DNA from: Torpedo marmorata
Taxonomy: Eukaryota
Direction: 5' to 3'
NCBI GenBank assembly: GCA_977017645.1
Contig: OZ360221.1
Span: 136,834,001 to 136,898,000 of the forward strand
DNA: 64,000 nt
The notes beneath the pieces were generated by a model that searched no databases, had not been told where the DNA came from, and was given only the letters and a program-made list of their open reading frames with translations. The position numbers and the translations under genes are program-made. This document shows, in pieces, positions 28,401-53,600 of this stretch. Position 1 is the first letter of the stretch. Each line of letters opens with the position of its first letter.

Positions 28401-31400
28401 CACAAGGACAGCTTCTTCCCCGCTGCCATCAGATTCCTGAATAATCAATGAACCAAAGACACTGCCTTACTTTTCGTGCACTATTATTTATAATTTTTTA
28501 TAGTAATGTCATAAGATGGTTAATATGAATGTTAATTGCACTATGATGCTGCCGCAAAACACTGAATTTCATGACTTGTTCATGACAATAAATTCTGATT
28601 CTGATTCTGATTCTGATGAGGAGTGGGTCATGTTCCCCCGACTTCCTCCTGAAGTCAACAATCATCTCCTTGGTTTTGCTGACGTTGAGCGCAAGGTTGT
28701 TGTTGTTACACCATTCAACGAGCTGATCTATCTCCCTCCTGTACGCTTCCTCATTGCCGTTTGTGATTCTGCCGACAACTGTGGTGTCATCGGCAAACTT
28801 GTAGATGGCATTGGAATTGTGCCTGGCCACACAGTCATGGATGTATAACGAGTAGAGTAGTGGACTAAGCACGCATCCTTGGGGGGGGGGGGGGTGGGGG
28901 GCGCCTGTGTTGCCAGTAAGAAACAAAATAAGCTAAATAAACATGAAAACTATAAAACAAGAAATTATCTTTAGCCTGGTGTGTTTTGGAATGGTATTTG
29001 AGATATTTGCTGAATAGTTTAGTTGAAATACAATCAGTAGTATATCTGCAATCTTTGGGGCTAATTCACTGTTTTTCAAAATATCAGTCAAGCTATACAT
29101 ACATTTTTATCTATGCTGCTAACTCATGAAAGAGTTTTCTCCAATCAACTATTCTTATAAACCCATTAAAGCCAGAAAAAAATAAACAGATTCATGTTGC
29201 TTATCAATGCAAAACATTCACACATTTTCCTACCTTTGCATCTGCTCTTGATGGGTAGTCAAAATACACATCGTTAAATTCCACAATCCCTTTAATTTGA
29301 TCAGGCTTGTATCCTTCCTCTGAGAAATTGTCTATAGCAGGTTTCTAAGAGAAAAACCAAACAAGATTATCATACAATATTGTACAGAAACTATATTTTA
29401 GACTTTCTTTTTATGGTGGAATGGAAATTTATATTTTAAAAATATTATTGAATTTTTAGAAAAATCAAAGCAAAATTGCACTGCAAGAGAACAGTGCAGA
29501 CAACAGAAAGAGAAATAGACAACCAACATACTTATATTGCTGCCAAACTGTATACTCTAACATCTATTTTCTTCTTAGTGTCAACAGCTGCTTAGATCTG
29601 TAGCACTGCTTATTAGAGGTATTCTTGATCTTACACTTTTCAATATACAGTATCAGCAAAATTACATTCTCTGAAGTTTCACTCTGGTTGACCAGCAGGG
29701 AAACATTTATGTTTTATGGTTTATCTGCCAGTATTTTGCAGGGTCAAGACAATAATAAGATTCTTCCTAGGTCCACAGCTCTGTGGAACCATTGAATTAT
29801 CCCAGTCTTCCTTCTACAATCTATGGAATTTTAATGTTAATGCCGACATCCCCTAATCACCAATTTAACTTATTTTTACTTTTACCCTTTCCATTCTGAC
29901 AAGGCCATGTCTGTAATCCTTAGTTTTTTGTCTCAGTATCTCTTTTTTTTACACAAAGTATGAGGAAGATGAGGGTTATTTTTTAAACAATCAAAGTTAG
30001 ATTTTCAAAAGCTTGACCAACAATGCCTGCCACATGAGTGTTTTTTAAAATATCAGCTCCCTTCAATAACTTCAAGAATTGTTCCATCCGAAAGTTCACG
30101 ACTTTCCAGCTATAGTTAAAGCTGAAATTGTGATGTTCTTTTCTTGAGTAACCTTTAGTTTAACTATTTTTGAGTTCTGGGTAATCCAGCACAATTTATG
30201 TTAAACATTAATGTTTAAATAAAAGGAAGATGCACAAACTTGAGTGATGTATTTTAATGACATTTGGAGAATTAAAATAATCATATTTACCTAAAAGTTC
30301 TGAGACTTTTCTTGGTGCTCAGAGCTAATATTTTTCATTTATTAGATACATTAATATTACAAGATATAGGAACAGAACTACCCCATTTGGCACATTGAGT
30401 CTTCTCTGCCATTTGATCGTGGCTGATTTATTTTTCCCTCTCAAACCCATTCTCTGTAAACCTTGACACCCTTTCTAATCAAAAACATAGCAACTTCCGC
30501 TTTAAATATACTCAGTGACTTGGTCTCCACGGCTGTCTGTGGCAGAATAAACTCCCTCTGGCCAAAGAACATACTCCTCATCTCTGTTCTAAATGGATGT
30601 ATTTTTTTTCTAAGGCTGTGCCCCCTTGCCTTAGACTCTCCCATTACTGGAAACATCCACTCAAAATCCACTTTATTCAGCCATTTCAATATTTTGTACA
30701 TTTCAATAAGACGGCCACCCTCCATTCTTTTAAATTCCAGTGAGTACAAGCCCAAAGCAATCAAACGCTCCTCATATGTTCATCCTCTTATCCCTGGAAT
30801 CATTCTGGTAAACCTCTTCTGAACTCTCTCCAACACCAGTAAATCCTTCCTTGTGAAGAATTAATAACCATACAATTTTCTTTTCTTGCAATATTAATGT
30901 AAATCTAATAATAATGTTTAAATTTGCATATTTTTATCTCTGATATTATAAAATCCGATAGCAAAATTTAATGCCATTTGTCTTTCTAGAATGCATTGCT
31001 GGGGGTGGTGGTGGAGGCTGGTACAATGGGGACATTCTAAAGACTCTTCAATAGGCACATAGATGTAAAAAAAATAAAGGTTTATGGATGTGAGGTAAGT
31101 AAAAATTAGATTGTTGTGACATAGGGTAAGATAGGATGGCACAACATCGTGGGCTGAAGGCCTGTACTGTGCTGTCATGTTCTATGTTCTATATTTGAAT
31201 CAATTTCTGGCTTTTAAACTTCATGGCCTCTCCAGTGTTTCCATCACTCTTTCTAAAATCATGAAATTAGATTTGCAGTCTGCACATCTTCCACAGAAAG
31301 ATGGAGCTGAATAAATGAACATGCTTAAACCAACAAATCTGTTAGATGGAAATAAAAAACAAATACTCTTCTATGCATTGTGCTTCTGCATTATGACCAA

Positions 31401-34400: not shown

Positions 34401-37400
34401 TTGCATCGCTGCTATGCACAAAGTTAGTGTTATGTTTGCTTATATTTTAACAATGACTATTTTGATATAGTTAATTAGAACCAGAGTACCATAGAACATT
34501 ACAGCACAGAAACAGGCCCTTCGGCCTTTCTAGTTCGTGCGGAACTATTATTTTACCTAGTCCCACTGACCTGCACCCAGAACATAGTCCTCCATACCTC
34601 TCCCATCCATGTATCTGTCCAAATTCTTCTTAAATTTTAAAATTGAGCCTGCATTCACCACTTCAGCTGGCAGCTCGTTCCACACTCCAACCACTCTCTG
34701 TGTGAAGAAGTTCCCCCTAATGTTCCCCCGAAACCTTTCCCCTTTCACCCTGAACCCATGTCCTCTGGTTTGATCTCACATATCCTCAGTGGAAAAAGCC
34801 TACCTACATTTACTCTGTCTATACCCCTCATAATTTTAAATATCAAATCTCCCCTCATTCTTTGACGCTCCAGGGAATAAAGTCCTAACATGTTTAACGT
34901 TTCACTGTAACTCTCTTCCTGAAGTCTGGAGAACATCCTAGTAAATCTTCTCTGCACTCTCAATCTTATTGATATCTTTCCTGTAGTTAGGTGACCAAAA
35001 CTGCACACAATACTCCAAATTTGGCCTCACCAAAGTCTTATACAACTTTGCCATAACATCCCAGCTCCTATACTCAATACTTTGATTTATGAAGGCCAAT
35101 ATACCAAAATCTCTCCCTACAACCCTATCTACCTGTGACGCCACTTTCAGGGAATTATGTATCTGTATTCTCAGATCCCTCTTTTCTACTGCACTCCTCA
35201 GTGATAGAATGTAAAGAAAGGAGTTAAGCATTTTGAGACGAAAGAAGGACTTGGGTGCCTGTGTATTGAGGGGAGAAACAGACAGATGGGAACCATTAGC
35301 TGCCTGTGGAAATTTAGCTGTCTGACATACCAGAAATACTGGGAGGAAGATAGTGGTAACCATATAACCATATAACAATTACAGCACGGAAACAGGCCAT
35401 TAGGCCCTTCTAGTCCGCACCGAACCAAAACTCCTCTCTAGTCCCACCTACCTGCACCCTGCCCATAACCCTTCACTTCCTTCTCATCCATATACCTGTC
35501 CAACTTTTTCTTAAATAATAAAATTGACTCTGCCGCCACTACTTCTCCCGGAAGCTCATTCCACACCACTACCACTCTGAGTAAAGAAGTTCCCCCTCAT
35601 GTTACCTCTAAACCTCTGCCCCTTAACTCTTAACTCATGTCCTCTTGTTTCAATCTCTCCTACTCTTAATGGAAATAGTCTATCCACATCCACTCTGTCT
35701 ATCCCTTTCATAATCTTAAATACCTCTATCAAATCCCCTCTCAACCTTCTACGCTCCAAAGAATAAAGACCTAATCTGCTCAATCTCTCCTTGTACTCGA
35801 GATGCTTAAACCCAGGTAACATTCTGGTAAATCTTCTCTGCACTCTCTCCACTCTGTTGATATCCTTCCTATAATTTGGCGACCAGAACTGCACACAGAA
35901 CTCTAAACTAGGCCGCACCAACGCCTTATATAATCTCAACATCACTTCCCAACTCCTATATTCTATGCAATGATTGATAAATGGCAGCATACTAAAAGCC
36001 TTCTTCACCACCCTATTCACATGAGTTTCTACCTTCAGGGAACGATGCACCGTTATTCCTAAATCTTTCTGCTCTTCTGTATTCATCAATGCTCTCCCAT
36101 TTACTACATATGTCCTGTTCTGATTCTTCTTACCAAAATGAAGCACCTCACACTTATCAGCATTAAACTCCATCTGCCATTTTTCAGCCCACTTTTCTAA
36201 GCAGCCCAAATCCCTCTGCAATCCTTGAAAACCTTCTTCATTATCCACTATTCCACCTATCTTATTATCGTCTGCATATTTACTAATCCAGTTTACCACC
36301 CCATCATCTAGATCATTAATGTATATAACAAACAACAATGGGCCCAATACAGATCCCTGAGGCACACCGCTGGTCACCGGCCTCCAACCTGACAGACAAT
36401 TATCCACTACCACTCTCTGGCCTCTCCCTTTCAGCCAATGTTCAATCCATTTGACTATCCCAAAATTTATACCTAAAGACTGCACCTTCCTAACTAACCT
36501 TCCATGTGGTAGCTTATCGAAGGCCTTACTGAAGTCCATATAGACAACATCCACGGTGCTACCCTCATCCACATTCCTAGTCACCTCTTCAAAAAATTCA
36601 ATCAGATTGGTCAAACAGGACCTTCCGCTCACAAATCCGTGTTGAGTGTTCCTGATCAGACCCTGTAACATCCCATACTAAGCTGTTTCTGCTAAAAAAA
36701 GCTGTTCAAGGTTGTTTAAAATAACTATGTCTCCCTCACAAAAGGCCTTCTGAGATTTTGCAGAGCAAAGCAAATTAGAGAAGAATTGATTAACTTGTTT
36801 TCGAGAATCGATCATTTTGTTTATGACAAAACGACTAGTGGTATCAGGGCAGCTGCAGCACAGGGCATAAAATGAGTTGGTTGCTAAGACAACTGCATTC
36901 CTGCTTAAGATAAATTGGATTCCAAGGCTACCCTGTGCTAGTCGAGAAGGATAGTTATGTCTCTCTTCTAAGATGCTCTGTGAAAGTTTACATTTATGCT
37001 TATGTATACTTTTTGACCAATCCTGTATAATTTTGCCCACCTTTTGAAAGTATAAAAAACCGTGTCTCTTTTGTCTTGTTGGAGACCTCTGATGCAGCCT
37101 CTTTGAAAGTGCAGAAGGAGAGATCTCCCAGGTAGCTTGCTATTCAATAAACTGCTTTACTTATTTACTGCATTCGTCATGCTGTGTGTTTTGTTACAGC
37201 GGGCAGCGATCACACTTTGGCAAGCCAGCCAGCAGTGGGAAGAAGGGGGTTAGGCATTTTGAGACGAAAGAAGGACTGGGTGCCTGTGTACTGAGGGGAG
37301 AAACAGACGGATGGGGATCATTAACTGGCTATTGAAAATTAGATGCTTGTTAATACCAGAAATACTGGGGGAGAAATAGTATAACAGTCTGCTAGCTGCT

Positions 37401-40400
37401 TGTTTGAGATAACTGTTCCAAGGTTGCTCGAGATAATTATGTCTCCATCACAGAAGGCCTTGTGAGAGTTTGCAGCAAGCAAATTGAAGAAATTGAATTA
37501 ACTTGTTTTAAGGAGGCAGCTAGTCGGTATCAGGGCAGATGCGGTACGGGGCATAAGATGTGTTGGTTGCTAAGACAACTACATTCCTGTTTGAGATAAC
37601 CACATCCAAGGCCACCCTGTGCTAGTCACAAAAGATAACTATGTCTTTATACCAAGACGCTCTGTGACAGTTTGCATTTATGCTTATGTATGCTTTTTTA
37701 TGCTTATGTATGCTTTTTGACCAATCCTGTAGAATTATGATTAGGTCACTATGTTGTGTTATGGACCATGACTAACCATTTGGACTGCAGATGGTCAGCA
37801 GGAAGGATGAAGTCTTTTGGAGTACACACTGGGACCAGGAACTGAAAGAGTTAACTTGCCCAGGACTTGGTGTACCCAGAGAGAGAGAGAGACCAGAGAG
37901 AGACAGGCTGTGGAAAAGATACTTTGTTGCACTTTTGCAAAAGCAGGTGCAGACATCTGCAAAAAGCAGGCAGTTTGGAGTTGCAAAGGCTAGAGAACAC
38001 AGCAAAATCCAGGCTTGTGCATCCCAGAGAAAAGGCTGGAAGAATAGCACATGGCCTCCTGTCTCAGAGAAATCCTGAGTTAAAGCAACTTTTGTGGAGA
38101 ACAGGCGTGAGATCAGCGAGACCAGCTGTGAGATCCAAGCACACGCCTCAATCAGTGGTATACTGATTTGGAGTCACAATCCTCGTGAATCTCTACCAAA
38201 AGGGAAAGTCATCAGAGAAGAAAAAAACAAGCCAAGTATTCGTAAGCATAAACAGTCATTGTCTCTCTCCAACGTTCATTGAAAAGTCCTTCTAGCAGCA
38301 CACAGAGCTGAATTTGGAACCTGAACTTAGAGAGTGAATTTTTGTGGACTGTATTATATATATATATTTTTTATTTTTATTTTATTTAAACTTTTAAATC
38401 ACAAAATACATAAGATAAAATATAAAATTATCAAAATACATGTGATATATTTTCACCCCCCCACCCTCCCTCCCCTCCCCAACCCCCCCATCCCCACTAA
38501 TCTAGTAAATATAAAATAAAAGTAAAAATAGAAAAAAGAAAGGAAGAAAAAGATGGAAAAAGGGGAATATCATCTATAAACTAATTCTATTATGGAGGTC
38601 AAATGTGCCAGTAGATCCGATATCCAGAGATCTTCAGATCCTTAAACCCACAGCTCTCATATATGGGCTCCAAATTTTCAAAAAGAAATGATATTTATTA
38701 CGTAAATTATAAGTAATTTTTTCCAGAGGTATACACGAACGGAGCTCTGCATGCCATCTTTCTAATCCTAAATCTAAGTCAGATTTCCAAGTAATAGCAA
38801 TGCATTTTTTCGAAACAGCTAAAGCAATTCGTAAAAATTCTACTTGAAACATATTTAATTTCTTTTTAATACTAAATTTTTTAATATCTCCAAATAAAAA
38901 TAACATAGGATCCACTGGAAATGTAATATTAAATATTTTATCTAAATTTTTTTAAACTTTCAACCAAAAATCTTGAATCTTTGGACAAAACCATGTAGAA
39001 TGAACAAAAGAACCTTCCTCATTATTGCATCTAAAACATAATCCTGATAATGTCGGATTAAATTTCTTTAATTTTTTAGGTGTTAAATATAATTGATGAA
39101 AGAAATTATATTGTACTAGTCTATATCTAACATTAATAATCTTCGTCATACTTAACTTACATAAATCTTTCCAGTGATTTTCATCTATATTTACATTTAA
39201 ATCTAATTCCCATTTTAATCTTGATTTATGCAATCCTATTTTAGGCATTTTCCTCTGAAACAACTTATACATTTGAGAAATAAATTTATTAACATCTCCA
39301 TTAGTAACTAATAATTCTAATTCATTTTGTCTTGGTAAATCTTTCCAGTGATTTTCATCTATATTTACATTTAAATCTAATTCCCATTTTAATCTTGATT
39401 TATGCAATCCTATTTTAGGCATTTTCCTCTGAAACAACTTATACATTTGAGAAATAAATTTATTAACATCTCCATTAGTAACTAATAATTCTAATTCATT
39501 TTGTCTTGGTAAAATCAAAGCATAACCTAATTTCTCAGTCAAAAAAGCTTTAACTTGATAATAAGCTAAAAATGTATTATCTGGTATATTAAATTTATCT
39601 TTCATTCTTTGAAACGTAATAAATTTTCCAGCTTCAAAACAATCATTTATCTTCTTAATACCTTTTTGAAACCAAATTTTAAGTAACTTATTATTAACAG
39701 TAAATGATATAAGTCCATTTTGATATAATGGCATATTTGAAGAAATTTAATCCTCTTCCACCTATCTCTTTATCCATCTTACCCCATATTTCTAACAAAT
39801 GTTTAATAATCGGTGAATTTTTCTTTTTTAATAATATTAATTTAGAATCCCATTTATAAATAATTTATTCTTTAAAATTTTCTCCTATATTATTTAATTC
39901 TATTTTAATCCAAGCAGAAGATTTAGTTAAATCAAAAAATTCATTAACAAATTTCAGTTGAGCTGCTTTATAATAATTTTGAAAATTAGGAAATTGCAAT
40001 CCACCCATCTCATAATTCCAGGTTAACTTTTCCATACTTACTCTTGCTAACTTTCCTTTCCATAAAAATTTCCTAACAATAAAATTTAAATATTTAAATT
40101 TTTTTTCAGGAATTCCAAAAGGAATTGATTGAAAAAGATACTGCACTCTTGGAAAAATATTCATTTTAATACAATTTACCCTTCCCATTAAAGTTATGGG
40201 TAAATCTTTCCAATTCTCTAGATCTTTCTTTATTTTCACAAATAATGGTAAATAATTTAATTTATATAAATTTTCCAATTTTGTATCAACCTTAACCCCC
40301 AAATATTTAATTCCTTCTTTAGCCCATTTAAATTGTGTAATTTCTTTACATCTAGTATAATCACCCTGAGATAAAGCCATTATTTAACTTTTATCAGAAT

Positions 40401-41594
40401 TAATTTTATACCCAGATATTTCACCATATTCTCTTAATATAATAGATAGTTGTTGAAGTGATATAATAGATTTTGTCATATATATCAATACATCATCTGC
40501 AAACAAACTAATCTTATGTTCTTCCATACCAACTTTAATACCCACTATCTTAGGATCTTTTCTAACTAATTCAGCCAAGGGTTCTATCGCCAAAACAAAT
40601 AAAGCTGGTGACAGGGGACATCCCTGTCTCGTAGAACGTGTCAAAGAAAATTTTGGCGATATTTGTCCATTTGTAATTACTTTAGCTAATGGTTCTTTAT
40701 ATATAGTTTTAATCCAATTTATAAATGTATTTCCAAAACCAAATTTTTTTAATACCTTAAATAAAAAATTCCATTCTAATCTATCAAAAGCCTTTTCAGC
40801 ATCTAATGTTACAATTAATGGTAAATCTTGCTTCTTTTTATGCAAACTAATTAAACTAATTAGTCTAGTTATATTATCCTTTGAATATCAATTTTTAATA
40901 AAACCAGCTTGATCTATATGTATCAAATTTGGCAAATATTTAGCCATTCTGTTTGGTAAAATTTTTGCCATTATTTTATAATCTACATTTAATAGTGAAA
41001 TAGGTCTATATGATTCAGTTTTTAATACATCTCTATCCTTCTTTGGTATAACTGTAATTATAGCATTTAAAAATGTTTTTGGTAATGAATGAGTTTCCGT
41101 AATTTGATCTAATACCTCCATATATGGAGGTATCAATAAATCTTTAAATTCTTTATAAAATTCTGATGAAAACCCATCATCACCCGGAGATTTACCACTC
41201 ATCAGCGAAGAAAAAACTTCACTAACTTCCCTCATTGTGAAAGGCAAATCTAAAGAATCTCTACTCCGAATATTCAATTTAGGTAATACAATTTTAGATA
41301 GGAATCTATTAATTTTAGAATCATCTTGATCAATCTGCGATTTATATAAATTCTGATAATAATCTTTAAAAGTTTCATCTATCTCTTGAGGTTTATAAGT
41401 TAATTCTCCAGTATTTTTCTTCCTTATAGCATTTATAGTTTTAGAAACTTGTTCTTTTTTTAATTGCCATGCCAAAACCTTATGTGTGTATTATATTTTT
41501 TTGACTGACTTGTTTTTATGACTGACCTGGGGTTTTTGGGGAAAGTTTTTCCATTTTTACATGAGGGTTTGGCACAGACTGTAATGGTCTGGGC

Positions 41595-41639
<45 letters not shown>

Positions 41640-44600
41640 ACACAGACACACACACACACACACACACAAACCTTTTAGATAAGAATAGTGTTTATAGACG
41701 TTTATAGTGGGGTTAATTGTTGTGAAATTATATGTTTAATTGTCTTTAATAAATATAAATTTCAATTTTACCCATTTACATTGCGTCTTCTGTCGTTGCT
41801 GGTTTGATTTTGTAACAAAATTGGGGGCTCGTCCGGGATTTGAAGCAAAATCCATCTTGGTAATTGAAGGAATCCCAGTTTGGTTTAAGACATTCCTTTT
41901 GTAAAGCTAATTAAAAGCTAGTGTGTGTGTAACGAAAAACCAGCAACAATGGATGTAGAACATTTTTTGGAATCACCTGAACCTGATACTTAAAAAAAGG
42001 CAAAAAAGGAACAGTTAGTAGCTATAGCAACAGGTTTGGGCATTGCTTCAGTGAAATCATCTATGAAAAAGGCAGAGATTGGGAGAAAAATTGTCAAATA
42101 CTATATAAAATAAAAAAGGTTTGAGGAGAGCGTGTTAGAGCAGTTTCCCAAGGGTAAACCTTCTGATAACATACAGTTGGAAATAAAGAAATTGGAATTG
42201 GAACAAAAGAACAGCGAATTGGAACAAAGGAAATTGGAATTGGAGGCAGCCAGGGAACAAAAGAAATTAGAATTGGAGGCAGACAGGGAACAAAAGAAAT
42301 TGGAATTGGAATTGGAACTAAAGAGACACAAGAACGATGAAAGAAATAGGAGATATATGCTGGAAAAGATAAAGTTGGAAAATGAGGGGAGACAAGAAGA
42401 GCAACAAGATCAAATTCGTCATCCTGTTGAGGGGTTTTTGGCTAGTAGAGAAGTTAGGTTGGTTCCTCCATTTGAGGAGGCAGAAATAGATAAGTACTTC
42501 CAGCATTTTGAGAAGATGGCTGTGAAATTAAAATGGCCACAAGACCAATGGTCTCTTATGTTACAAAGTGTAATTAAAGGAAAAGCTCAGCAAGCTTATT
42601 CTACTCTTACCACAGAGCAAGCTGCTGATTATGAAACGGTGAAAAAGGCTATTCTCCAGGATTATGAGTTAGTTCCAGAGGCTTATAGACAGAAGTTTAG
42701 AAATTTTAAAACATCAGCAACCCAATCTTACACAGAGTTTGCCTATGAAAAGGTTGTGTGTTTTGACCGGTGGTGCTCATCTAAGGCAGTAAACAATGAT
42801 TACAAACAATTGAGAGAATTGATAATAATCGAGGAGATAAAAAGGTGTGTTCCTGAGAATATTAAGGCATACTTAGATGAAAAGGAGGTGAAAACTTGGC
42901 AAAATTCAGCTAAGTTAGCAGATGAATATGCTTTAACCCACAAGCCTAAGTGGACGTCAGTTGAATTTTCCAAAAGGTCACGGTGGATAATCAGAAGCAA
43001 GTGGAAAGTAAATTTGGAAGTGGTGTTAAGGAAAGGGATGAAGGAAAGTGGAAAAGGGAAAACCATTCGGGTCCCATTTGCCACTACTGTAGGAAGGCTG
43101 GTCATATGATAGCAAGCTGTCCAGTGTTGATAAAGAAGAGAGAAAAGGATGCAACACCTAATGCTTGTATTCAGAGTGAGAAGAGGCATAACACCTAGGA
43201 AGGAGTTAAATTTACTGACAAAGTTAAAGATGTATTTAAACCTTTTGTGACTGATGGTTTTGTTTCAGTTAAGGCAGGATCAAAACAAGTGCCAGTGAAA
43301 ATCTTGCGAGATACTGGAGCTGCTCAGTCACTTGTGTTAGATAGTGTCTTGGAATTTTGTGAAGCTACTGACACCGGTGACATAAATTTAATTAAAGGAA
43401 ATGGTGGTGATGTTGAGTCCATTCCTTTGCACAAAATAGTATTGGACTCAGACTTGGTGGAAGGACCTTTTATAATAGGAGTGAGATCAGAGTTGCCAGT
43501 AGAAGGAGTCTCACTGTTGCTGGGCAATGACTTGGCCAAGGGTAAAGAAGTTCCTGCAGTGCGAATGACCACTAAGCCAGTCATTGATAAGTCAGAGAAA
43601 GACTCTGATATTTATCCGGCATGTGCCATAACCAGGGCCATGTCTAAGAAAAATGTCACTGTAGAGAAGGCAGTGGAAAATAACTTGGTGAAAGAAAAAG
43701 ACAGTGATAATCAAGAAAACCTGGAATAGGTTGAGCAATCTCCTATGTTACACCCATACACTCACTGATAAGACACCTAAAGGCACAGATTTGTCACTAT
43801 CCCGACAGGAGCTAATAGCAAGGCAAAAGGACGATCCTGATCTTGCTGAGGTGAGGGATAAGGTTCTCTCTGAAGAGGAGATTAAAAAGGTGCCAGTGGG
43901 TTATTATGAAAAAGATGGGTGTTGATGAGAAAGTGGAGACCATGTGATGTTCCTGCCAATGAAGAATGGGCAGTAGTGCAGCAGGTTGTGATCCCTTAAG
44001 TATATAGGGATGCAATAATAAATTTGGCTCATAGTAAAACCTTAGGTGGTCACCTTGGGGTGAAGTAAACTATAAAGAAGACAATGAAACAATTTTATTG
44101 GCCCAGATTGAGAAGGGAGGTTGTAAGTTTTTGCCGGGCCTGTCACACTTGTCAGGTGGTTGGTAAACCTAATCAGAGTCCCCCGGTGGCACCCTTGCAA
44201 CCTATCCCTGCTTTCAGTGAGCCTTTCTCGAGAGTAATTGTGGACTTTGTTGGCCCATTGCCCAAAACCAAAGCGGGGAATGAGTATTTGTTAACAATTA
44301 TGTGTGCAGCCACCAGATTTCCAGAGGCCATTCCTCTGAGAAACATTAAAGCAAAGGCAATTGTAAAGGCTATGGTAAAGTTTTTCACCTTGGTAGGTTT
44401 GCCAAGGGAAATTTAATCAGATCAGGGCAATAATTTCATGTCAGGCGTTTTCCAACAAGTGGTTGATGGACTGGGAGTTAAACAGATTGTATCCTCTGCG
44501 TACCATCCAGAAAGTCAAGGGGCCTTGGAGAGGTTCCATTCGACTTTGAAAAACATGATTAGAACCTATTGTTGTGAAAAGGAAAAGCATTGGGATGAGG

Positions 44601-47600
44601 GGGTTCATTTGTTGTTATTTGCAGTGAGGGAATCTGTCCAAGAATCACTTGGTTTTAGTCCATTCGAGTTAGTTTTCGGACATGAGGTGAGAGGTCCTTT
44701 AAGATTATTAAAAGAACAGTGGATTAATAGTGATGTGCATTTAAATCTGTTAGATTATATTTCCAAATTTAAGGATCAGTTGAATAGGGCTTGTGAGATG
44801 GCAAAGGAGAATTTAAAGGCCACTCAACAGAGAATGAAGGTTTGGTATGATCGAAAGGCTAAGATGAGAACTTTTAAACCTGGTGAGAATGTATTAGTTC
44901 TGTTTACCATCCATTCAAATCATCTTAGAGCTAGATTTTCAGGACCCTATAGCATTAAGTCAAAAATTAATGATGTCACCTATGTCATAGAATCACCTAA
45001 TCGCAGACGAGACACACAGGTCTGTCATGTGAATATGATTAAGCCATATTTTGAACAGGTGCTGCACAAAGGGACTGAAAATTTACCAGAGGTACTGGTT
45101 ATTGACAGGGGTAAGGAGGAGACAGATAAAACCAGTTTCAAAGAGGGTCATGGGACTGTTAATTCTCTGAGTTATGTAGTAGGACAGGGGAAGTTGGCGC
45201 CAGTAGAGGTAAAGGTTGTGACTTTTTCCAAGTTCCCTGTTCCAACTGGTAAGAAAACTCTGAGGAGGTTACTGGGAATGATTGGCTACTACCGCAAGTT
45301 ATGTAAAAACTTTGCTGATCTTGTGCTCCCTCTCACAAATTTTCTTAGAAAGAGAGAAAAATTTGTATGGTCGACAGGTTGTCAGGAAGCATTTGTCAAA
45401 TTGAAAGCCAGGTTATGCCACCAACCTGTGCTTAAGTCACCTAATTTAGAACAGCCGTTTTCTTCAGCCGTGGATGCCAGCGATGAAGCTGTGGGCGCGG
45501 TGCTGTTACAGAAGAAGACCATCCGGTATCCTACTTCTCGAAGAAGTTCAATGATCATCAAAGGAATTATTCAACCATAGAAAAAGAGTTGTTGGCTCTT
45601 GTGTTGGCTCTACAACACTTTGATGTGTATATCTGTACAGCTCAAAAACCACTCATAGTGTATACTGACCATAAAATTCATTGGTTTTTCTTTGTAAAAT
45701 GAAAAATAAGAATCGACGGTTGTTGAATTGGAGTCTAATTTTGCAAGAATATGATTTGGTAATAACACATTTAAAAGGGAAATATAATGTAATTGCTGAT
45801 TATCTTTCTTGATGTTAAACTTTATCAATGAAAATAGTTCATATTTTGTATTTGTGGATGAACATTGTAGATTATGTTTATATTGTGACACCTCAATTCA
45901 TTTCCAAAATTTTTTCTTGCAGACCAAAATTTTCTTTGTGGGTGGGAGGTGTTATGGACCATAACAGACCATTTGGACTGCAGACAGTCAGCAGGAAGGA
46001 TGAAGTCTTTTGGAGTACTGTTATGGACCATGACTAACCATTTGGACTGCGGACGGTCAGCAGGAAGGATGAAGTCTTTTGGAGTATACACTGGGACCAG
46101 GTACTGAAAGAGTTAACTAGCCCAGGACTTGGTGTACCCAGAGAGAGAGAGAAAGAGAGAGCAGAGAAAGACAGGCTGTGGAAAAGATACATTGTTGCAC
46201 TTTTGCAAAAGCATGTGCAGACCTCTGCAAAAGGCAGACAGTTAGGAATTGCAAATGCTAGAGAACACAGCCAAATCCAGGCTTGTGCATCCCAGAGGAA
46301 AAGGCTGGAAGGATAGCACATGGCCTCCTGTCTCAGAGAAATTCTGAGTTAAAAGCAACTTTGTGGAGAACAGGCGTGAGATCAGCGAGACCAGCTTTGA
46401 GATCCAAGCACACGCCTCAATCAGTGGTATACAGATCTGAACTCGCAATCCTTATGAAAACACAAGAAGGGAACGTCATCAGAGAAGAAAAACAAGTATT
46501 TGTAAGCATAAACAGTCATTGTCTCTCTCCAACGTTCATTCAGAAGTACTTCTACCAGACACAGAGCTGAATTTGAAACCTGAATTTAGAGAGTGAATTT
46601 TGTGGACTGTATTATTCTTTTTTTTTGACTGACTTGTTTTTTATGACTGACCTGGGGTTTTTGGGGAAAGTTTTTCCATTTTTACATAAGGGTTGGGCAC
46701 AGACTGTAATGGTCTGGGCTTTACACACACACCATTTAGATAAGAATAGTGTTTATAGATGTTTATAGTGGGGTTAATTGTTGTGAAATTATATGTTTAA
46801 TTGTCTTTAATAAATATAAATTTCAATTTTACCCCTTTTGCATTGCGTCTTCTGTCGTTGCTGGTTTCATTTTGTAACAAAATTGGGGGCTCGTCCTAGG
46901 ATTTGAATCAAAATCCATCTTGGTAATTGAAGGAATCCCAGTTTGGTTTAAGGCATTCCTTTTGTAAAGCTAATTAAAATCTAGTGTGTGTGTAACGAAA
47001 AACCAGAAACAATGGATGTAGAACATTTTTTGGAATCACCTGAACCTGATACTTTAAAAAAGGCGGAAAAGGAACAGTTAGTGGCTATAGCAACAGAGTT
47101 GGGCATTGCTTCTATAAAACCATCTATGAAAAAGGTAGAGATTGGGAGAAAAATTGTCAAATACTATATAAAAGAAAAAAAATTTGAGGAGAGCATGTTA
47201 GAGCAGTTTCCCAAGGGTAAACCTTCTGAAAATATACAATTGGAAATAAAGAAATTGGAATTGGAACAAAAGAAATTAGAGGCAGACAGGGAACAAAAGA
47301 AATTAGAGGCAGACAGGGAACAAAAGAAATTAGAATTGGAGGCAGCCAGGGAACAAAAGAAATTAGACACGGAATTGGAACAAAAGAGATTAGACTTAGA
47401 GCACGATGAGAAAAATAGGAGATATGAGCTGGAAAAGATGAGGTTGGAAAATGAGAGGAGACAAGAAGAGCGCCAAGATCAAATTCGTCATCCTGCTGAG
47501 GGGTTTTTGGCTAGTAGAGAAGTTAGGATGGTTCCTCCATTTGAGGAGGCAGAAATAGATAAGTACTTCCAACATTTTGAGAAGGTGGCTGTGAAATTAA

Positions 47601-50600
47601 AATGGCCACAAGACCAATGGTCTCTTATGTTACAAAGTGTAATTAAAGGAAAAGCTCAGCAAGCTTATTGTACTCTTACCACGGAGCAAGCTGCTGATTA
47701 TGAAATGGTGAAAAAGGCTATACTCCAGGCTTATGAGTTAGTTCCAGAGGCTTATAGACAGAAGTTTAGAAATTTAAAAAGATCAGCAACCCAAACTTAT
47801 ACAGAGTTTGCCTATGAAAAGGTTGTGTGTTTGACAGGTGGTGCACATCTAAGGCGGTAAACAATGATTACAATCAATTGAGAGAATTGATAATAATCGA
47901 GGAGATAAAAAGGTGTGTTCCTGAGGATATTAAGGCCTACTTAGATGAAAAGGAGGTGAAAACGGCAAAATTCAGCTAAGTTAGCAGATGAATATGCTTT
48001 AACCCACATGCCTAAGTGGACGTCAGGTAGAATTTTCCAAAAGGTCACTGTGGATAATCAGAAGCAAGTGGAAAGTAAATTTGGAAGTGGTGTTAAGGAA
48101 AGGGATGAAGGAAAGTGGAAAAGGGAAACCATTCGGGTCCCATTTGCCACTACTGTAGGAAGGCTGGTCATATGCTAGCAAGCTGTCCAGTGTTGAAAAA
48201 GAAGAGAGAAAAGGATGCAACACCTAATGCTTATATTCAGAGTGAGAAGAGGCATAACACCCAGGAAGGAGATAAATTTACTGACAAAGTTAAAGATGTA
48301 TTTAAACCTTTTGTGACTGATGGTTTTGTTTCAGTTAAGGCAGGATCAAAACAAGTGCCAGTGAAAATCTTGCGAGATATTGGAGCTGCTCAGTCACTTG
48401 TGTTAAATAGTGTCTTGGAATTTTGTGAAGCTACTGACACCGGTGACATAAATTTAATTAAAGGAATTGGTGGTGATGTTGAGTCCATTCCTTTTCACAA
48501 AATAGTATTGGACTCAGACTTGGTGGAAGGACCTGTTATAATAGGAGTGCGATCAGAGTTGCCAGTAGAAGGAGTCTCACCGTTGTTAGGCAATGACTTG
48601 GCCAAGGGTAAAGTAGTTCCTGCAGTGCGAATGACCACTAAGCCAGTCATTGATAAGTCAGAGAAAGACTCTGATATTTATCCGGCATGTGCCATAACCA
48701 GGGCCATGTCTAAGAAAAATGTCACTGTAGAGAAGGCAGTGGAAAATAACATGGTGAAAGAAAAAGACACTGATAATCAAGAAAACCAGGAAAAGGTTGA
48801 GCAATCTCCTGTGTTACACCCATCCACTGATAAGACACCGAAAGGCAGAGATTTGTCACTATCCCGACAGGAGCTAATAGCAAGGCAAAAGGGCGATCCT
48901 GATCTTGCTGAGGTGAGGGATAAGGTTCTCTCTGAAGAGGAGATTAAAAAGGTGCCAGTAGGTTATTATGAAAAAGATGGGGTGTTGATGAGAAAGTGGA
49001 GACCATGTGATGTTCCTGCCAATGAAGAATGGGCAGTAGTGCAGCAGGTTGTGATCCCTAAAGTATATCGGGATGCAATAATAACTTTGGCTCATAGTAC
49101 ACCCTTAGGTGGTCACCTTGGGGTGAAGAATAATAAGGAAGATAATGAAACAATTTTATTGACCCAGATTGAGAAGGGAGGTTGTAAGCTTTTGCCGGGC
49201 CTGTCACACTTGTCACGTGGTGGATAAACCTAATCAGGGTCCCCCGGTGGCACCCTTGCAACCTATCCCTGCTTTCAGTGAGCCTTTCTCGAGAGTAATT
49301 GTGGACTGTGTTGGCCCATTGCCCAAAACCAAAGCGGGGAATGAGTATTTGTTAACAATTATGTGTGCAGCCACCAGATTTCCAGAGGCCATTCCTCTGA
49401 GAAACATTAAAGCAAAGACAATTGTAAAGGCTATGGTAAAGTTTTTCACCTTGGTAGGTTTGCCAAGGGAAATTCAATCAGATCAGGGCAGTAATTTCAT
49501 GTCAGGCGTTTTCCAACAAGTGGTTGATGGACTGGGAGTTAAACAGATTGTATCCTCTGCGTACCATCCAGAAAGTCAAGGGGTCTTGGAGAGGTTCCAT
49601 TCGACTTTGAAAAACATCATTAGAACCTATTGTTGTGAGAAGGAAAAGGATTGGGATGAGGGGGTTCATTTGTTGTTATTTGCAGCGAGGGAGTCTGTTC
49701 AAGAATCACTTGGTGATAGTCTATTCGAGTTAGTTTTCGGACATGAGGTGAGAGGTCCTTTAAGGTTATTAAAAGAACAGTGGATTAATAGTGATGTGCA
49801 TTTAAATCTGTTAGATTATGTTTCCAAATTTAAGGATCGGTTACATAGGGCTTGTGAGATGGCAAAGGAGAATTTAAAGGCCACTCAACAGAGAATGAAG
49901 GTTTGGTATGATCGAAAGGCTAAGATGAGAACTTTTAAACCTGGTGAGAATGTATTAGTTCTGTTTCCCATCCATTCAATTCATGTAAGGGCTAGATTTT
50001 CAGGACCCTATAGAGTTAAGTCAAAAATTAATGATGTCACCTATGTCATAGAAACATCTAATCACAGACGAGACAGACAGGTCTGTCATGTGAATATGAT
50101 TAAGCCATATTTTGAACAGGTACCACACAGAAGGTCTGAAAATTTACCAGAGGTGCTGGTTATTGACAGGGGTAAGGAGGAGACAGATAAAACCAGTTTC
50201 AGAGAGGGTCATGGTACTGTTAATTCTCTGAGTTATGTAGTAGGACAGGGGAAGTTGGTGCCAGTAGAGGCAAAGGTTGTGACTATTTCCGAGTTCCTGT
50301 TCCAACTGGTAAGAAAACTCTGAGGAGGTTCCTAGGAATTATTGGCTACTACCGCAAGTTCTGTAAAACTTTGCTGATCTTGCGCACCCTCTCACAAATT
50401 TGCTTAGAAAGAAAGAAAAATTTGTATGGTCGACAGGTTGTCAGGAAGCACTTGTCAAATTGAAAGCCATGTTATGCCACCAACCTGTGCTTAAGGCACC
50501 TAATTTAGAACAGCCGTTTTCTTTAGCCGTGGATGCCAGCAATGAAGCTGTGGGTACGGTGCTGTTGCAGAAGAAGAACGAAGAGGACATTGACCATCCG

Positions 50601-53600
50601 GTATCCTACTTCTGCAAGAAGTTCAATGATCATCAAAGGAATTATTCAACCATAGAAAAAGAGTTGTTGGCTCTTGTGTTGGCTCTACAACACTTTGATG
50701 TGTTTATCTGTACAGCTCAAAAACCACTCATAGTGTATACTGACCATAATCCATTGGTTTTTCTTTGTAAAATGAAAAATAAGAATCGACGGTTGTTGAA
50801 TTGGAGTCTAATTGTGCAAGAATATGATTTAGTAATAACACATATAAAAGGAAAAGAAAATGTAATTGCTGATTGTCTTTCAAGATGTTAAACTTTATCA
50901 ATGAAAATAGTTCATATTTTGTATTCGTGGATGAACATTGTGGGTTTTGTTTATATTGTGACACCTCAATTAATTTCCAAAATTTTGTTCTTGCAGACCA
51001 AAATTTTCTTTGTGGGTGGGAGGTGTTATGGACCATGACTGACCATTTGAACTGCGGACGGTCAGCAGGAAGGATGAAGTCTTTTGGAGTACACACTGGG
51101 GCCAGGTACTGAAAGAGTTAACTTGCCCAGGACTTGCTGTACCCAGAGAGAGAGAGAGAGCAGAGAGAGACAGGCTGTGGAAAAGATACTTTGTTGCACT
51201 TTTGCAAAAGCAGGTGCAGACCCCTGCAAAAAGCAGATAGTTTGGAGTTGCAAAGGCTAGAGAACACAGCCAAATCCAGGCTTGTGAATCCCAGAGAAAA
51301 GGCTGGAAGTATAGCATATGTCCTCCTGTCTCAGAGAAATTCTGAGGTAAAGCAACTTTTGTGGAGAACAGGCGTGAGATCAGCGAGACCAGCTGTGAGA
51401 TCCAAGCACACGCATCAATCAGTGGTATACTGATCTGAACTCGCAATCCTTATGAAAACACAAGAAGGGAATGTCATCAGAGAAGAAAAACAAGTATTTG
51501 TAAGCATAAACATTTATTGTCTCTCTCCAACGTTCATTCAGAAGTACTTCTACCAGCACACAGAGCTGAATTTGAAACCTGAACTTCGACAGTGGAATTT
51601 TGTGGACTGTATTATTCTTTTTTTGACTGACTTGTTTTTATGACTGACCTGGGGTTTTTGGGGAAAGTTTTTCCATTTTTACATAATGGTTGGGCACAGA
51701 CTGTAATGGTCTGGGCTTTACACACACACACACACACACACACACCTTTTAGATAAGAATAGTGTTTATAGACGTTTATAGTGGGGTTAATTGTTGTGAA
51801 AGTATATGTTTAATTGTCGTTAATAAATATAAATTTCAATTTTACCCCTTTTGCATTGCGTCTTCTGTCGTTGCTGGTTTGATTTTGTAACACTATCCAA
51901 ATACCTGTATATACAATCTCTTAGAACACCGTCCAATAACTTACTTACTACTGATGTCAGGCTCACTGGTCTAAAATTTACTGGGTTAATTTTGGAGCCT
52001 TTTTTAAACAATGAAACAACGTGAGCTACCCTCCAATCCTCCGGTGCCACACCTGTGGCTAAGGACATTTTAAATATTTCCGCCAGAGCCCCTTCAATTT
52101 CTACATTAGCCTCCCTCAAGGTCTGAGGGAATATCTTGTCAGGCCCTGGGGATTTAACCACCCTGATTTGCTTTTAGACAGCAAGCACCTCCTCCTCTTT
52201 AAACTCTATAGGTTCCATGACCTCACTGCTTGTTTTCCTTACTCGCTTAGATTCTGTGCCAGTTTCCTGTGTAAATACTGATGCAAAAATGCAATTTAAG
52301 ATCTTCCCCAGCTCTTTTTACTCCATACATAGCCGACCACTGTGATCTTCAAGGGGACCAATTTTGTTCCTGACTATCCTTTTGCTCTTAATATACCTGT
52401 TGAAACCCCGAGGATTTTCCATCACATTGTTTGCCAAAGCAACCCCACGTCTTCTTTTAGCCTTCCTGATTTCATTCTTGAGTTTTTCCTTGCATTTTTT
52501 ATACCCCAAAAGTACCTAATTTGCTCCATGTTGCCTATACCTGCTATACACCTCCCTCTTCCGAACCAGATCCCCAATATCCCTCAAAAACCAAAGCTCC
52601 CTATGCCTGTTTACTTTGCCTTTAATCTGAACATACAAACTCTGTACTTTCAAAATTTCACCTTCGAAGGACTTCCACTTACCTACCACATCCTTTCCAG
52701 AAAACAACATCCCAATCCACAGATTCTAGATCCTTTCTCATTTCCTCAAAATTGGCCTTTCTCCAATTTAGAATCTCAACCCGAGGCCCAGACCTATCCT
52801 TCTCCATAATTAACTTGAAACAATGGCATTATGATCATTGGACTCAAAATGTTCCCCTGCACATACTTCTGTCACTTGTCCTATCTCGTTCCCTAATAGG
52901 AGATCCAGTATTGCATTCTTTCTGGTTGGTTCCTCTATATATTGATTCAGAAAACGTTCCTGAACTCTTTTGACAAACTTGAAGCCATCCAGCCCTTTTA
53001 CAGTATGGGAGTCCCAGTCAATAAGTGGAAAGTTAAAATCTCCTATGATTACAACTTTATGTTTCCTGCAGCTGTCTGCTATCTCTCAACAGACTTGCTC
53101 CTGCAATTCTTGCTGACTATTGTGCGGTCTATAATACAACCCCATGAGTGTGGTCATACCTTTCCTGTTACTCAGTTCCATCCATATAGCCTCAGTGGAT
53201 GAGCCCTCTGGTCTGTCCTGTCTGAGCACAGCTGTGATATTTTCCCTAACAAGCAATGCCACTCCTCTCCCTTTCATTTCCCCCATTCTATTGCGTCTGA
53301 AACAACGGAAGCTCAGAACATTGAGCTGCCAGTCCTTCCCCTCCTTCAACCATGTTTCACTAAAGGCCACAATGTCATAATTCCATGTGCCAATCCATGC
53401 TCTAAGCTTGTCTGCCTTTCCTAGAATACTTACTGCATTGAAATGGATGCACCTGAAAAAAAAAATCCATCACGTATAACCCTTTGACTTCTGACGTTCA
53501 TGTATTCTTCACTTCATCTTTTTCCCCCTCCACTCCTCTATCTGCTCTGGCACTCTGGTTCCCATGCCCCTGCAAATCTAGTTTAAACCCCACCGGAGCA

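Follow-up and report, generated by a model that had tools for sequence, protein, structure and literature searches.

Gmr1-like elements encode a SCAN capsid followed by protease (PR), integrase (INT), and reverse transcriptase (RT)-RNase H according to bioRxiv 10.1101/2025.03.03.638093, and in the Gmr elements of PMC11117352 gag and pol are fused in a single frame. Semiautonomous families such as wheat RLG_Sabrina/WHAM (partner, Wilma) and RLG_Quinta (partner, Cereba), as well as TR-GAG, are described as amplifying without an RT of their own and are thought to give proteins to a shared particle (PMC9744471, PMC11302176, and PMC13570524). By the criteria set out in PMC9744471, a nonautonomous element occupies dispersed independent loci and has a complete partner with the same primer-binding site (PBS), LTR termini, and activity period. 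For grapevine Vine-1 (Ty1/copia), PMC2576258 reports that the RT domain is absent and that no full-length copy was found, and 15 of the 115 sugar beet families in PMC13570524 carry some RT, RNase H, or INT remnant. The Ty3 RT (4OL8) is an asymmetric homodimer whose RNase H activity comes from subunit B only, the thumb and RNase H of that subunit being modeled to shift ~40 Å for cutting (PMC5371799).

Here, we describe two related units in a window of 64,000 nucleotides from Torpedo marmorata (contig OZ360221.1, positions 136,834,001 to 136,898,000). They have the SCAN-PR-INT-RT-RNase H order and single fused frame described for Gmr1-like Ty3/Gypsy elements of fish, but they have lost ~250 codons spanning the linker, fingers, and palm, and their primer grip is degenerate; the frame amounts to ~1,295 codons, compared with 1,506 to 1,634 for the Gmr elements in Table 2 of PMC11117352. 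Sabrina, Quinta, and TR-GAG, as presented in the papers cited above, are without RT and INT and have gag with or without protease, whereas the units retain INT and thumb-RNase H with catalytic residues, in an animal host. Semiautonomous LTR families in those papers kept gag and dropped the enzymes, while here the polymerase alone was dropped. Vine-1 is reported to lack the 3′ end of its frame; in contrast, the loss described here is internal and in frame. The locus is a shared-LTR tandem of two dead Gmr1-like Gypsy copies, which likely came from a high-copy family lacking RT polymerase and likely borrowing it from a rarer complete relative.

Two units share a middle LTR and have decayed neutrally

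As listed in Table 1, two head-to-tail Gypsy-type units form one tandem, LTR-I-LTR-I-LTR, at 37757-51892. The initial annotation had confined the element to 45040..50891, which is too small; the middle LTR is common to both units. The hallmarks of LTR retrotransposons are present, namely, direct LTRs (~870 bp) with TG...CA termini, a PBS, and a polypurine tract (PPT). The unit 1 frame encodes, in order, a coiled gag N terminus, SCAN capsid, zinc knuckle, protease, integrase, linker, and RT remnant. A 69-bp tandem duplication (45950-46018 and 46019-46087) occupies the 5′ end of LTR2, and the L1 in LTR1 is flanked by a 9-bp target duplication (38350-38358 and 41487-41495). There was no Rfam match within 37000-52500, and the flanks of 37757 and 51892 had no common 4- to 6-bp repeat that would represent an outer target-site duplication. 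The tandem LTR retrotransposons described in PMC5932611 have the same layout, and LTR recombination is given there as a common source of shared-LTR units; compared with those tandems, the outer target-site duplication is absent here, so a later or nonallelic rearrangement was also involved.

Table 1. Features of the tandem element, in window coordinates; stops and frameshifts were counted from the break rows of the unit comparison
Feature	Coordinates	Strand	Remarks
LTR1, 5′ part	37757..38358	+	Begins TG; locally divergent patch near 38165-38235
L1-type LINE inside LTR1	38359..41486	-	Inserted after the element; separate from it
LTR1, 3′ part	41487..41817	+	Terminal CA
Unit 1 PBS	41822..41839	+	4 nt behind LTR1; presumably of tRNA-Pro type
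Unit 1 single gag-pol frame	41949..45818	+	8 stops and 5 frameshifts
Unit 1 INT linker, deletion junction, and degenerate primer-grip remnant	45059..45190	+	Junction just 5′ of 45146
Unit 1 thumb and RNase H	45191..45818	+	
Unit 1 PPT	45938..45949	+	Immediately 5′ of LTR2
LTR2	45950..46879	+	Common to both units
Unit 2 PBS	46884..46902	+	Slightly altered
Unit 2 single gag-pol frame	47012..50891	+	1 stop and 6 frameshifts; domain order as in unit 1
Unit 2 INT linker, deletion junction, and degenerate primer-grip remnant	50120..50251	+	Junction just 5′ of 50207
Unit 2 thumb and RNase H	50252..50891	+	PF17917, E = 1e-31; four acidic catalytic residues present
Unit 2 PPT	51012..51023	+	Immediately 5′ of LTR3
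LTR3	51024..51892	+	TG...CA

Comparison of the units identified 20 lesions private to one or the other and none in common. The pN/pS between them was 0.92 with transition weighting (P = 0.35) and 0.74 unweighted (P = 0.046); the differences between the units are neutral postinsertion decay. Given that the internal divergence (4.9%) approximates the LTR-LTR divergence (4.8 to 6.1%) and that an LTR is held in common, both units probably stem from one event rather than from two independent insertions. It had been argued initially that copies differing by many substitutions yet sharing the deletion imply amplification of the deleted form. This argument fails, as tandem units diverged neutrally, and in view of the weighted pN/pS we rejected divergence between the units as proof of independent amplification. 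Neutral dN/dS among copies had also been proposed as a refutation of such a family; neutrality is indeed seen between the units, yet the test is unfair because every inserted copy decays neutrally and only the stem is informative.

The shared-LTR layout, the neutral pN/pS, and the match between internal and LTR divergence would equally suit a chance in-frame deletion in one copy followed by local (or assembler) duplication, the family at large being RT complete; one-third of deletions are in frame by chance. We consider this quite unlikely, and an assembler duplicate in particular is contradicted by the 4.9% divergence and the private indels.

The RT core is absent in frame from both units

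The RT fingers and palm, ~250 codons, are absent in frame from both units, with a net loss of ~251 codons relative to XP_051888858.1 (P0001) of the sawfish Pristis pectinata, the nearest RT-complete protein among those listed (68% identity in INT). As noted initially, the INT end HVNMIKPY (~45027 and ~50088) leads through a linker of ~30 codons to GH.TV.. (45146 and 50207) and then to thumb and RNase H, in one frame in both units. When P0001 was used in tblastn, the match ended at amino acid 916 and restarted at amino acid 1197 in both units, and the PFGM (1130) and YIDD (1157) of the sawfish protein fell within this gap; an identical gap was obtained with the other four of the five proteins tested, which were chosen from 120 listed. 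Gaps occupied 88 of 100 conserved columns of the missing span in both units, none of seven ORF pieces matched Pfam RVT_1 at E ≤ 0.1, and four RT-core patterns searched in six frames over 37000-52500 gave no Gypsy RT match, the single match lying inside the L1. These results bear out the reported absence of the RT core, including PFGL and YxDD. The last RT motif, initially read after the linker as a degenerate EFG.ATV.YLG.VVG.G, is reliable from GH onward, whereas the preceding F.E may be either RT or linker. That the same junction is in frame in both copies was confirmed, but uninterrupted reading through the junction is no sign of an intact frame overall, and in unit 2 one frameshift falls 30 codons beyond it. 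Neither unit has the complete RT with a YxDD palm that marks an autonomous element.

The remaining domains are kept in both copies as initially described: SCAN-gag, PR, INT, thumb, and RNase H were all recognized, the SCAN-type capsid with an E value of 9e-13 (PF02023). Gag through pol is one frame, with no break common to both units and a terminal stop in common. All 16 catalytic and zinc residues are present in both; the integrase HHCC and DDE are intact, and the four RNase H acids are kept. INT lies upstream of the RT remnant and RNase H in both units, a Gmr1-like order. Unit 1 45146-45514 aligns with Ty3 RT (4OL8) residues 259 to 370, the retained piece starting at about Ty3 residue 259. 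Nucleic acid is required for the Ty3 dimer. In Ty3, subunit B is described as a full-length chain with RNase H between its own fingers and palm (PMC5371799), whereas the piece here is without fingers or palm and a subunit B role is hypothetical. Tentatively, an abundant RT-less family could encode a stand-alone thumb-RNase H that fills the subunit B position, and so provides RNase H, in an RT dimer whose polymerase comes from a rare complete partner; capsid, protease, and integrase would be supplied by the RT-less family as well. If this doubtful possibility were true, the polymerase and RNase H of a Ty3-type RT would be naturally split between genes of two different elements, and the partner would be needed for one catalytic site only.

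An integrase with intact HHCC and DDE although the polymerase is lost could also point to movement without reverse transcription, in the manner of a Ginger-like DNA transposon with its own integrase, and Ginger and Gmr1 integrases are akin. This is extremely improbable, since the 870-bp direct LTRs, PBS, PPT, gag, protease, and RNase H are kept and would be needed only for RNA-based copying; moreover, among the repeats listed, there were no terminal inverted repeats at the element ends.

Probable selection on the stem before the units split

The tally of 20 private and 0 common lesions limits any neutral period before the split to less than ~0.7%. At that bound, ~0.1 to 0.15 changes common to both units are expected at seven conserved primer-grip positions, and three were found (Poisson P = 2e-4 to 6e-4 for at least three and 0.005 to 0.011 for at least two), in a post hoc test that depends on two to three positions. 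The grip aromatic and the grip glycine are each retained in 181 of 183 RT-complete grips, and glycine at the third grip position occurs in 11 of 183. The thumb/RNase H had no common change at 74 scorable conserved columns, while in INT 6 of 178 conserved columns were changed in both units, 5 of them conservatively. The contrast between the grip and thumb/RNase H gave a Fisher P of 4e-4, or 0.007 with the two invariant positions only (72 columns used). Because a useless grip appears to have drifted whereas protein-level selection was maintained on INT, thumb, and RNase H, we infer from the sequences that the RT-less form replicated as a lineage rather than being a single dead copy. A locally duplicated dead copy would hardly gain two to three invariant-grip changes without a common lesion or a thumb/RNase H change.

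Known semiautonomous families contribute gag only, as described in PMC9744471 and PMC11302176, and only two to three grip changes serve to date the deletion along the stem; both points would fit a real and amplified family in which thumb-RNase H, and perhaps INT, were passengers and the frame was kept open only for gag-PR. This is unlikely, in that 0 of 74 columns changed in common and the four RNase H acids are kept, against a drifted grip. Decay of such passengers would, again improbably, have been hidden by youth since the deletion or by template switching with the partner, in a TR-GAG/Sabrina/Quinta-like element. Sugar beet families retain pol remnants called partly decayed in PMC13570524, which would also fit passenger domains, whereas the downstream RNase H here looks constrained.

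Probable occurrence of the RT-less form in sequencing runs

Words of the stretch were found in 19 of 20 listed runs from 14 studies, and no RNA run containing the stretch was among the runs listed. Organisms B to F contained 0.33 to 0.43 of the words, as expected for a family sequence ~3% from the decayed copy described here. Contig depth was evaluated in 4 of the 20 runs (X1, X2, X3, and X5, from four organisms and four studies), excluding X4, X6 to X8, and X9 to X20. In all four, depth was continuous over the junction region, and the linker bin had 0.85 to 1.75 of the depth of flanking bins, which is summed contig depth and not copy number. X1 may be the sample from which the window itself came; relative to the INT median, its depth was 0.63 in the linker bin and 0.51 in the grip bin, the adjoining INT-end and thumb bins dipped alike, and 322 contigs exited the LTR3 end into discordant flanks (agreement, 0.36). 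An estimate of at least ~1,000 copies in X1 was a rough bound built on a guessed single-copy depth and was not relied on. Separately, X5 depth climbed toward the 3′ end; X5 is RNA only by guess, and the rise was not used as evidence.

Long contigs, 86 to 87% alike, stopped matching at 50130 and continued for 259 to 461 letters in X2, X3, and X5, where they made up 3.9%, 0.7%, and 6.4% of local depth, respectively. One X3 contig joined at 50210 with different letters ahead, where a complete RT would enter. No contig among those listed bridged the junction with 31 letters on both sides, and the exact junction pattern had no match in metagenome and viral contigs. The lack of a listed bridging contig, together with the X1 dip to 0.5 to 0.6 of the INT median near the junction, would favor local duplication of one deleted copy; against it, three other organisms have full depth over the linker region, and only minor sequences, 13 to 14% divergent, leave at 50130. 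In several related animals, the RT-less form likely prevails, with an apparent excess of more than 10-fold over the complete relative of the family. Contigs of this minor relative were 81 to 90% alike in RNase H and 86 to 88% in INT; being no closer in RNase H, the relative gives no sign of recent refreshing, which argues against passenger domains renewed from it.

Altogether, a nonautonomous, amplified family supplying everything except polymerase is the best reading of the data. The stem test and the contigs of four runs support the initially proposed RT-less, polymerase-borrowing family, although the argument first offered for it fails. The progenitor would have been one open frame of ~1,295 codons. 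Once the polymerase core was lost, the primer grip, no longer of use, would have drifted, with protein-level selection continuing on integrase, thumb, and RNase H. RNA of the RT-less form would be packaged with or alongside the Pol of a candidate RT-complete relative (~86% identity at the INT end), would use its own PBS and PPT for priming, and would then be integrated. Recombination between LTRs probably produced the tandem, either during insertion or shortly thereafter, and neutral decay followed. INT and RNase H kept under apparent selection would change the view of what dependent elements contribute and would provide a natural test of whether Ty3/Gypsy reverse transcription can draw RNase H and polymerase from separate sources. 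Surveys that require RT, such as that described in PMC11117352, would miss such families even where they dominate the LTR content of a genome.

Relatives in protein collections

In INT and thumb-RNase H trees of 20 homologs of the same architecture, built without a named Gmr1 reference or outgroup, the units were sister to the sawfish protein (0.89 in INT and 0.98 in thumb-RNase H). Their stem was no longer, at 0.231 versus 0.231 in INT and 0.134 versus 0.151 in thumb-RNase H. No RT-less protein of this family was among the 120 matches listed for each protein collection (best identity, 69%), and short proteins searched with the junction region gave no match. We found no prior description of this RT-less family in PMC open access and bioRxiv; it may be present in Repbase, Dfam, subscription papers, or supplements. 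INT-to-thumb fusions from other animals (P0128, P0136, P0139, P0141, P0253, P0273, and P0299) were discounted, all being single-member clusters. Some fusion proteins of this kind have patchy deletions elsewhere, and they are likely gene models spliced over broken copies.

Structure of the tandem

The two RT-less internal regions of the Gmr1-like Gypsy element (units 1 and 2) form part of a larger LTR-I-LTR-I-LTR structure at 37757 to 51892. In each unit, a PBS, presumably of the tRNA-Pro type, lies 4 nt behind the upstream LTR, and a PPT precedes the downstream LTR. Comparison of the left flank of LTR1 with the right flank of LTR3 yielded no TSD common to the outer flanks of the tandem. A Pfam search of seven ORF pieces from both units identified SCAN, zinc knuckle, integrase zinc-binding (weak), core and C-terminal, and RNase H domains, with no match to RVT_1. 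The units thus match Gmr1-like elements, for which the available text of two sources describes a SCAN-PR-IN-RT/RH order within one frame (bioRxiv 10.1101/2025.03.03.638093, PMC11117352).

Components of the tandem structure, in window positions
Feature	Position	Remark
LTR1	37757-41817	split by an L1 insertion with a 9-bp target duplication
Internal unit 1	41818-45949	
LTR2	45950-46879	
Internal unit 2	46880-51023	
LTR3	51024-51892	

The extreme 5' end of LTR2 (45950 to 46087) carries a 69-bp tandem duplication directly behind the PPT, which may have been left by repeated plus-strand initiation or by tandem formation. The N-terminal coiled region of gag (42205 to 42330 and 47270 to 47420) is made of 27- to 33-bp repeats and is the most divergent part between the units. 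Within the L1 that splits LTR1, a perfect 174-bp tandem duplication (39162 to 39509) is either very recent or an assembly slip.

Loss of the RT core

The initial annotation stated that in both copies the RT core is absent and INT runs into the last RT motif, thumb, and RNase H, and our data confirmed this. The best of the 120 listed among 2,336 longer relatives, XP_051888858.1, is a 1,424-aa sawfish (Pristis pectinata) protein with a full RT; its match to each unit ends at aa 916 and picks up again at aa 1197. Four more proteins gave the same gap (five of the 120 listed were tested, including XP_051888858.1). When the units were aligned with 60 of the 74 long homologs, both had gaps at 88 of the 100 conserved columns within the deleted span. 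The net loss is about 251 codons. The retained part starts at about Ty3 RT residue 259, with the primer grip (the final hairpin of the palm), and continues through thumb and RNase H.

Divergence between the units and apparent constraint on their stem

Units 1 and 2 differ at 203 of 4,118 sites (4.9%), and the three LTRs diverge mutually by 4.8 to 6.1%. Over 1,276 codons, a 2.2-fold transition weighting put pN/pS between the units at 0.92 (P = 0.35), compared with 0.74 (P = 0.046) when no weighting was applied; by domain, it was 0.97 for INT and 1.41 for thumb-RNase H. The differences are the neutral decay of units that started out nearly identical. This is expected of a shared-LTR tandem, a form that LTR elements often produce according to the text available (PMC5932611), and the two units are probably one event. 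Thus, the earlier argument that many substitutions together with a common deletion imply amplification of the deleted form does not hold.

The stem leading to both units is informative instead. Unit 1 carries 13 stops and frameshifts and unit 2 carries 7, and none of these 20 lesions is common to both; therefore, the progenitor frame was open, and a dead phase preceding the split, if any, amounted to less than ~0.7%. Both units retain every one of the 16 catalytic and zinc-binding residues checked. Among columns conserved in at least 90% of homologs, thumb and RNase H had none altered in both units (0 of 74); INT had 6 of 178 (5 conservative), gag 4 of 48, and knuckle-protease 1 of 39. At the primer grip, 3 of 7 conserved positions were altered in both; two of the three are preserved in 181 of 183 grips of RT-complete sequences. 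In small, post hoc Fisher tests, the grip differed from thumb-RNase H (P = 4e-4; P = 0.007 with two positions, 72 columns used) and from all other domains (P = 0.002). In INT and thumb-RNase H trees of 20 homologs and the two units, the units adjoin XP_051888858.1, and their stems are not longer than its branch. The simplest reading of these patterns would be that the lineage replicated without polymerase until the grip had drifted, the rest remaining constrained.

Spread of the family in sequencing runs

Words of 47450 to 51130 were present in 19 of 20 listed runs (14 studies). The word share was 0.78 in organism A and 0.33 to 0.43 in organisms B to F, the latter corresponding to ~3% divergence, close to what a decayed copy would be expected to show against its family. 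We aligned contigs of four of these runs (X1, X2, X3, and X5; four organisms, four studies) to 49100 to 52100 at 80% likeness, and all 30 bins were covered in all four. Depth of the linker/junction bin was 1.07, 1.07, 0.85, and 1.75 relative to flanking bins and 0.63, 1.55, 0.88, and 1.20 relative to the INT median, respectively, summed contig depth not being equal to copy number; X1 depth dips over 50009 to 50412. No listed contig of these runs bridged the junction. Deep contigs are 95 to 99% identical to unit 2 (X2 record 9, depth 482; X5 records 25, 26, 28, and 29, depth 845 to 1,096). The bases missing at the three unit 2 frameshifts within this stretch (49132, 50295, and 50364) are present in deep contigs of every run, at 31 to 100% of local depth, so these breaks are not general to the family. 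Furthermore, 322 X1 contigs extend beyond the LTR end into flanks that disagree with one another, and the LTR therefore has many sites. A purely local deletion, confined to this tandem, is improbable. X1 may be the source sample of the window.

X2, X3, and X5 each contain one long contig, 86 to 87% alike, whose match covers the INT end and breaks off at 50130, the contig itself continuing for 259 to 461 letters; their shares of local depth are 3.9%, 0.7%, and 6.4%, respectively. Over RNase H, contigs of comparable depth reappear at 81 to 90% likeness; in addition, one X3 contig joins at 50210, preceded by 24 different letters. We read all of these contigs as a rarer, putative RT-complete relative.

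In X1, low-depth joints within 49588 to 50968 (e.g., 49681 to 50296, skipping 614, and 49588 to 49747) suggest that other derivatives with internal deletions exist. LTR1 shows dense private differences and a 7-bp insertion at 38165 to 38235, and loose contig ends in X2, X3, and X5 fall at the matching place (51432 to 51494), which suggests LTR subfamilies that recombine.

Proposed replication and comparison with known elements

We consider it likely that the family is non-autonomous for one activity. Transcription from its LTR would yield a gag-PR-INT-thumb-RNase H polyprotein; the polymerase of a complete relative would carry out reverse transcription in mixed particles, and the family's own or its partner's integrase would perform integration. 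A DNA-transposon mode is very improbable. For Ty3, the accessible text of PMC5371799 places polymerase and RNase H activities on different subunits of an asymmetric dimer, models thumb and RNase H of subunit B as moving about 40 A to cut, and states that integrase joined to RT stimulates reverse transcription. Because the retained piece roughly equals this moving module, it could conceivably, by analogy, contribute additional RNase H to particles that contain little full RT, a tentative idea; subunit B, however, has its own fingers and palm, whereas the retained piece lacks both. That the domains are mere passengers in a gag-supplying family is unlikely.

As far as the available portions of the sources go, Sabrina, WHAM, Quinta, and TR-GAG have gag but neither RT nor INT (PMC9744471, PMC11302176, PMC13570524); Vine-1 lacks RT through 3' truncation (PMC2576258), whereas the loss here is internal and in frame; beet families keep partly decayed pol remnants (PMC13570524); and many incomplete zebrafish elements are merely noted (PMC8672886). 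Searches of the open-access literature (PMC and bioRxiv) returned no account of any family whose polymerase was lost internally and in frame while INT and RNase H stayed constrained. Protein collections did contain RT-less look-alikes; all were singletons, probably gene-model artefacts. The family does not pass as an autonomous Gmr1-like member; judged by sequence, it is probably Gmr1-like by ancestry and would act as a semi-autonomous partner whose protein set is unusually full.

Surroundings of the tandem

CR1-type LINEs left of the whole nest (36665) and right of LTR3 (51893) share a homologous break point (positions 466 and 464 of the CR1 copy at 190 to 1777, to which the pieces are 96% and 69% identical, respectively). 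Candidate explanations are an insertion hot spot common to both, conversion, or recombination of two sites, and the shared break may in turn account for the absent outer TSD. LTR1 sits in the leader of a second, unrelated LTR-like element (36664 to 37198 and 37413 to 37698; TG...CA, ~535 bp), with a PBS-like stretch behind and an internal repeat 75% identical. Close inverted repeats of LINE-like sequence occupy 27168 to 28839 (561 nt, 93%, 223 nt apart; 225 nt, 94%).
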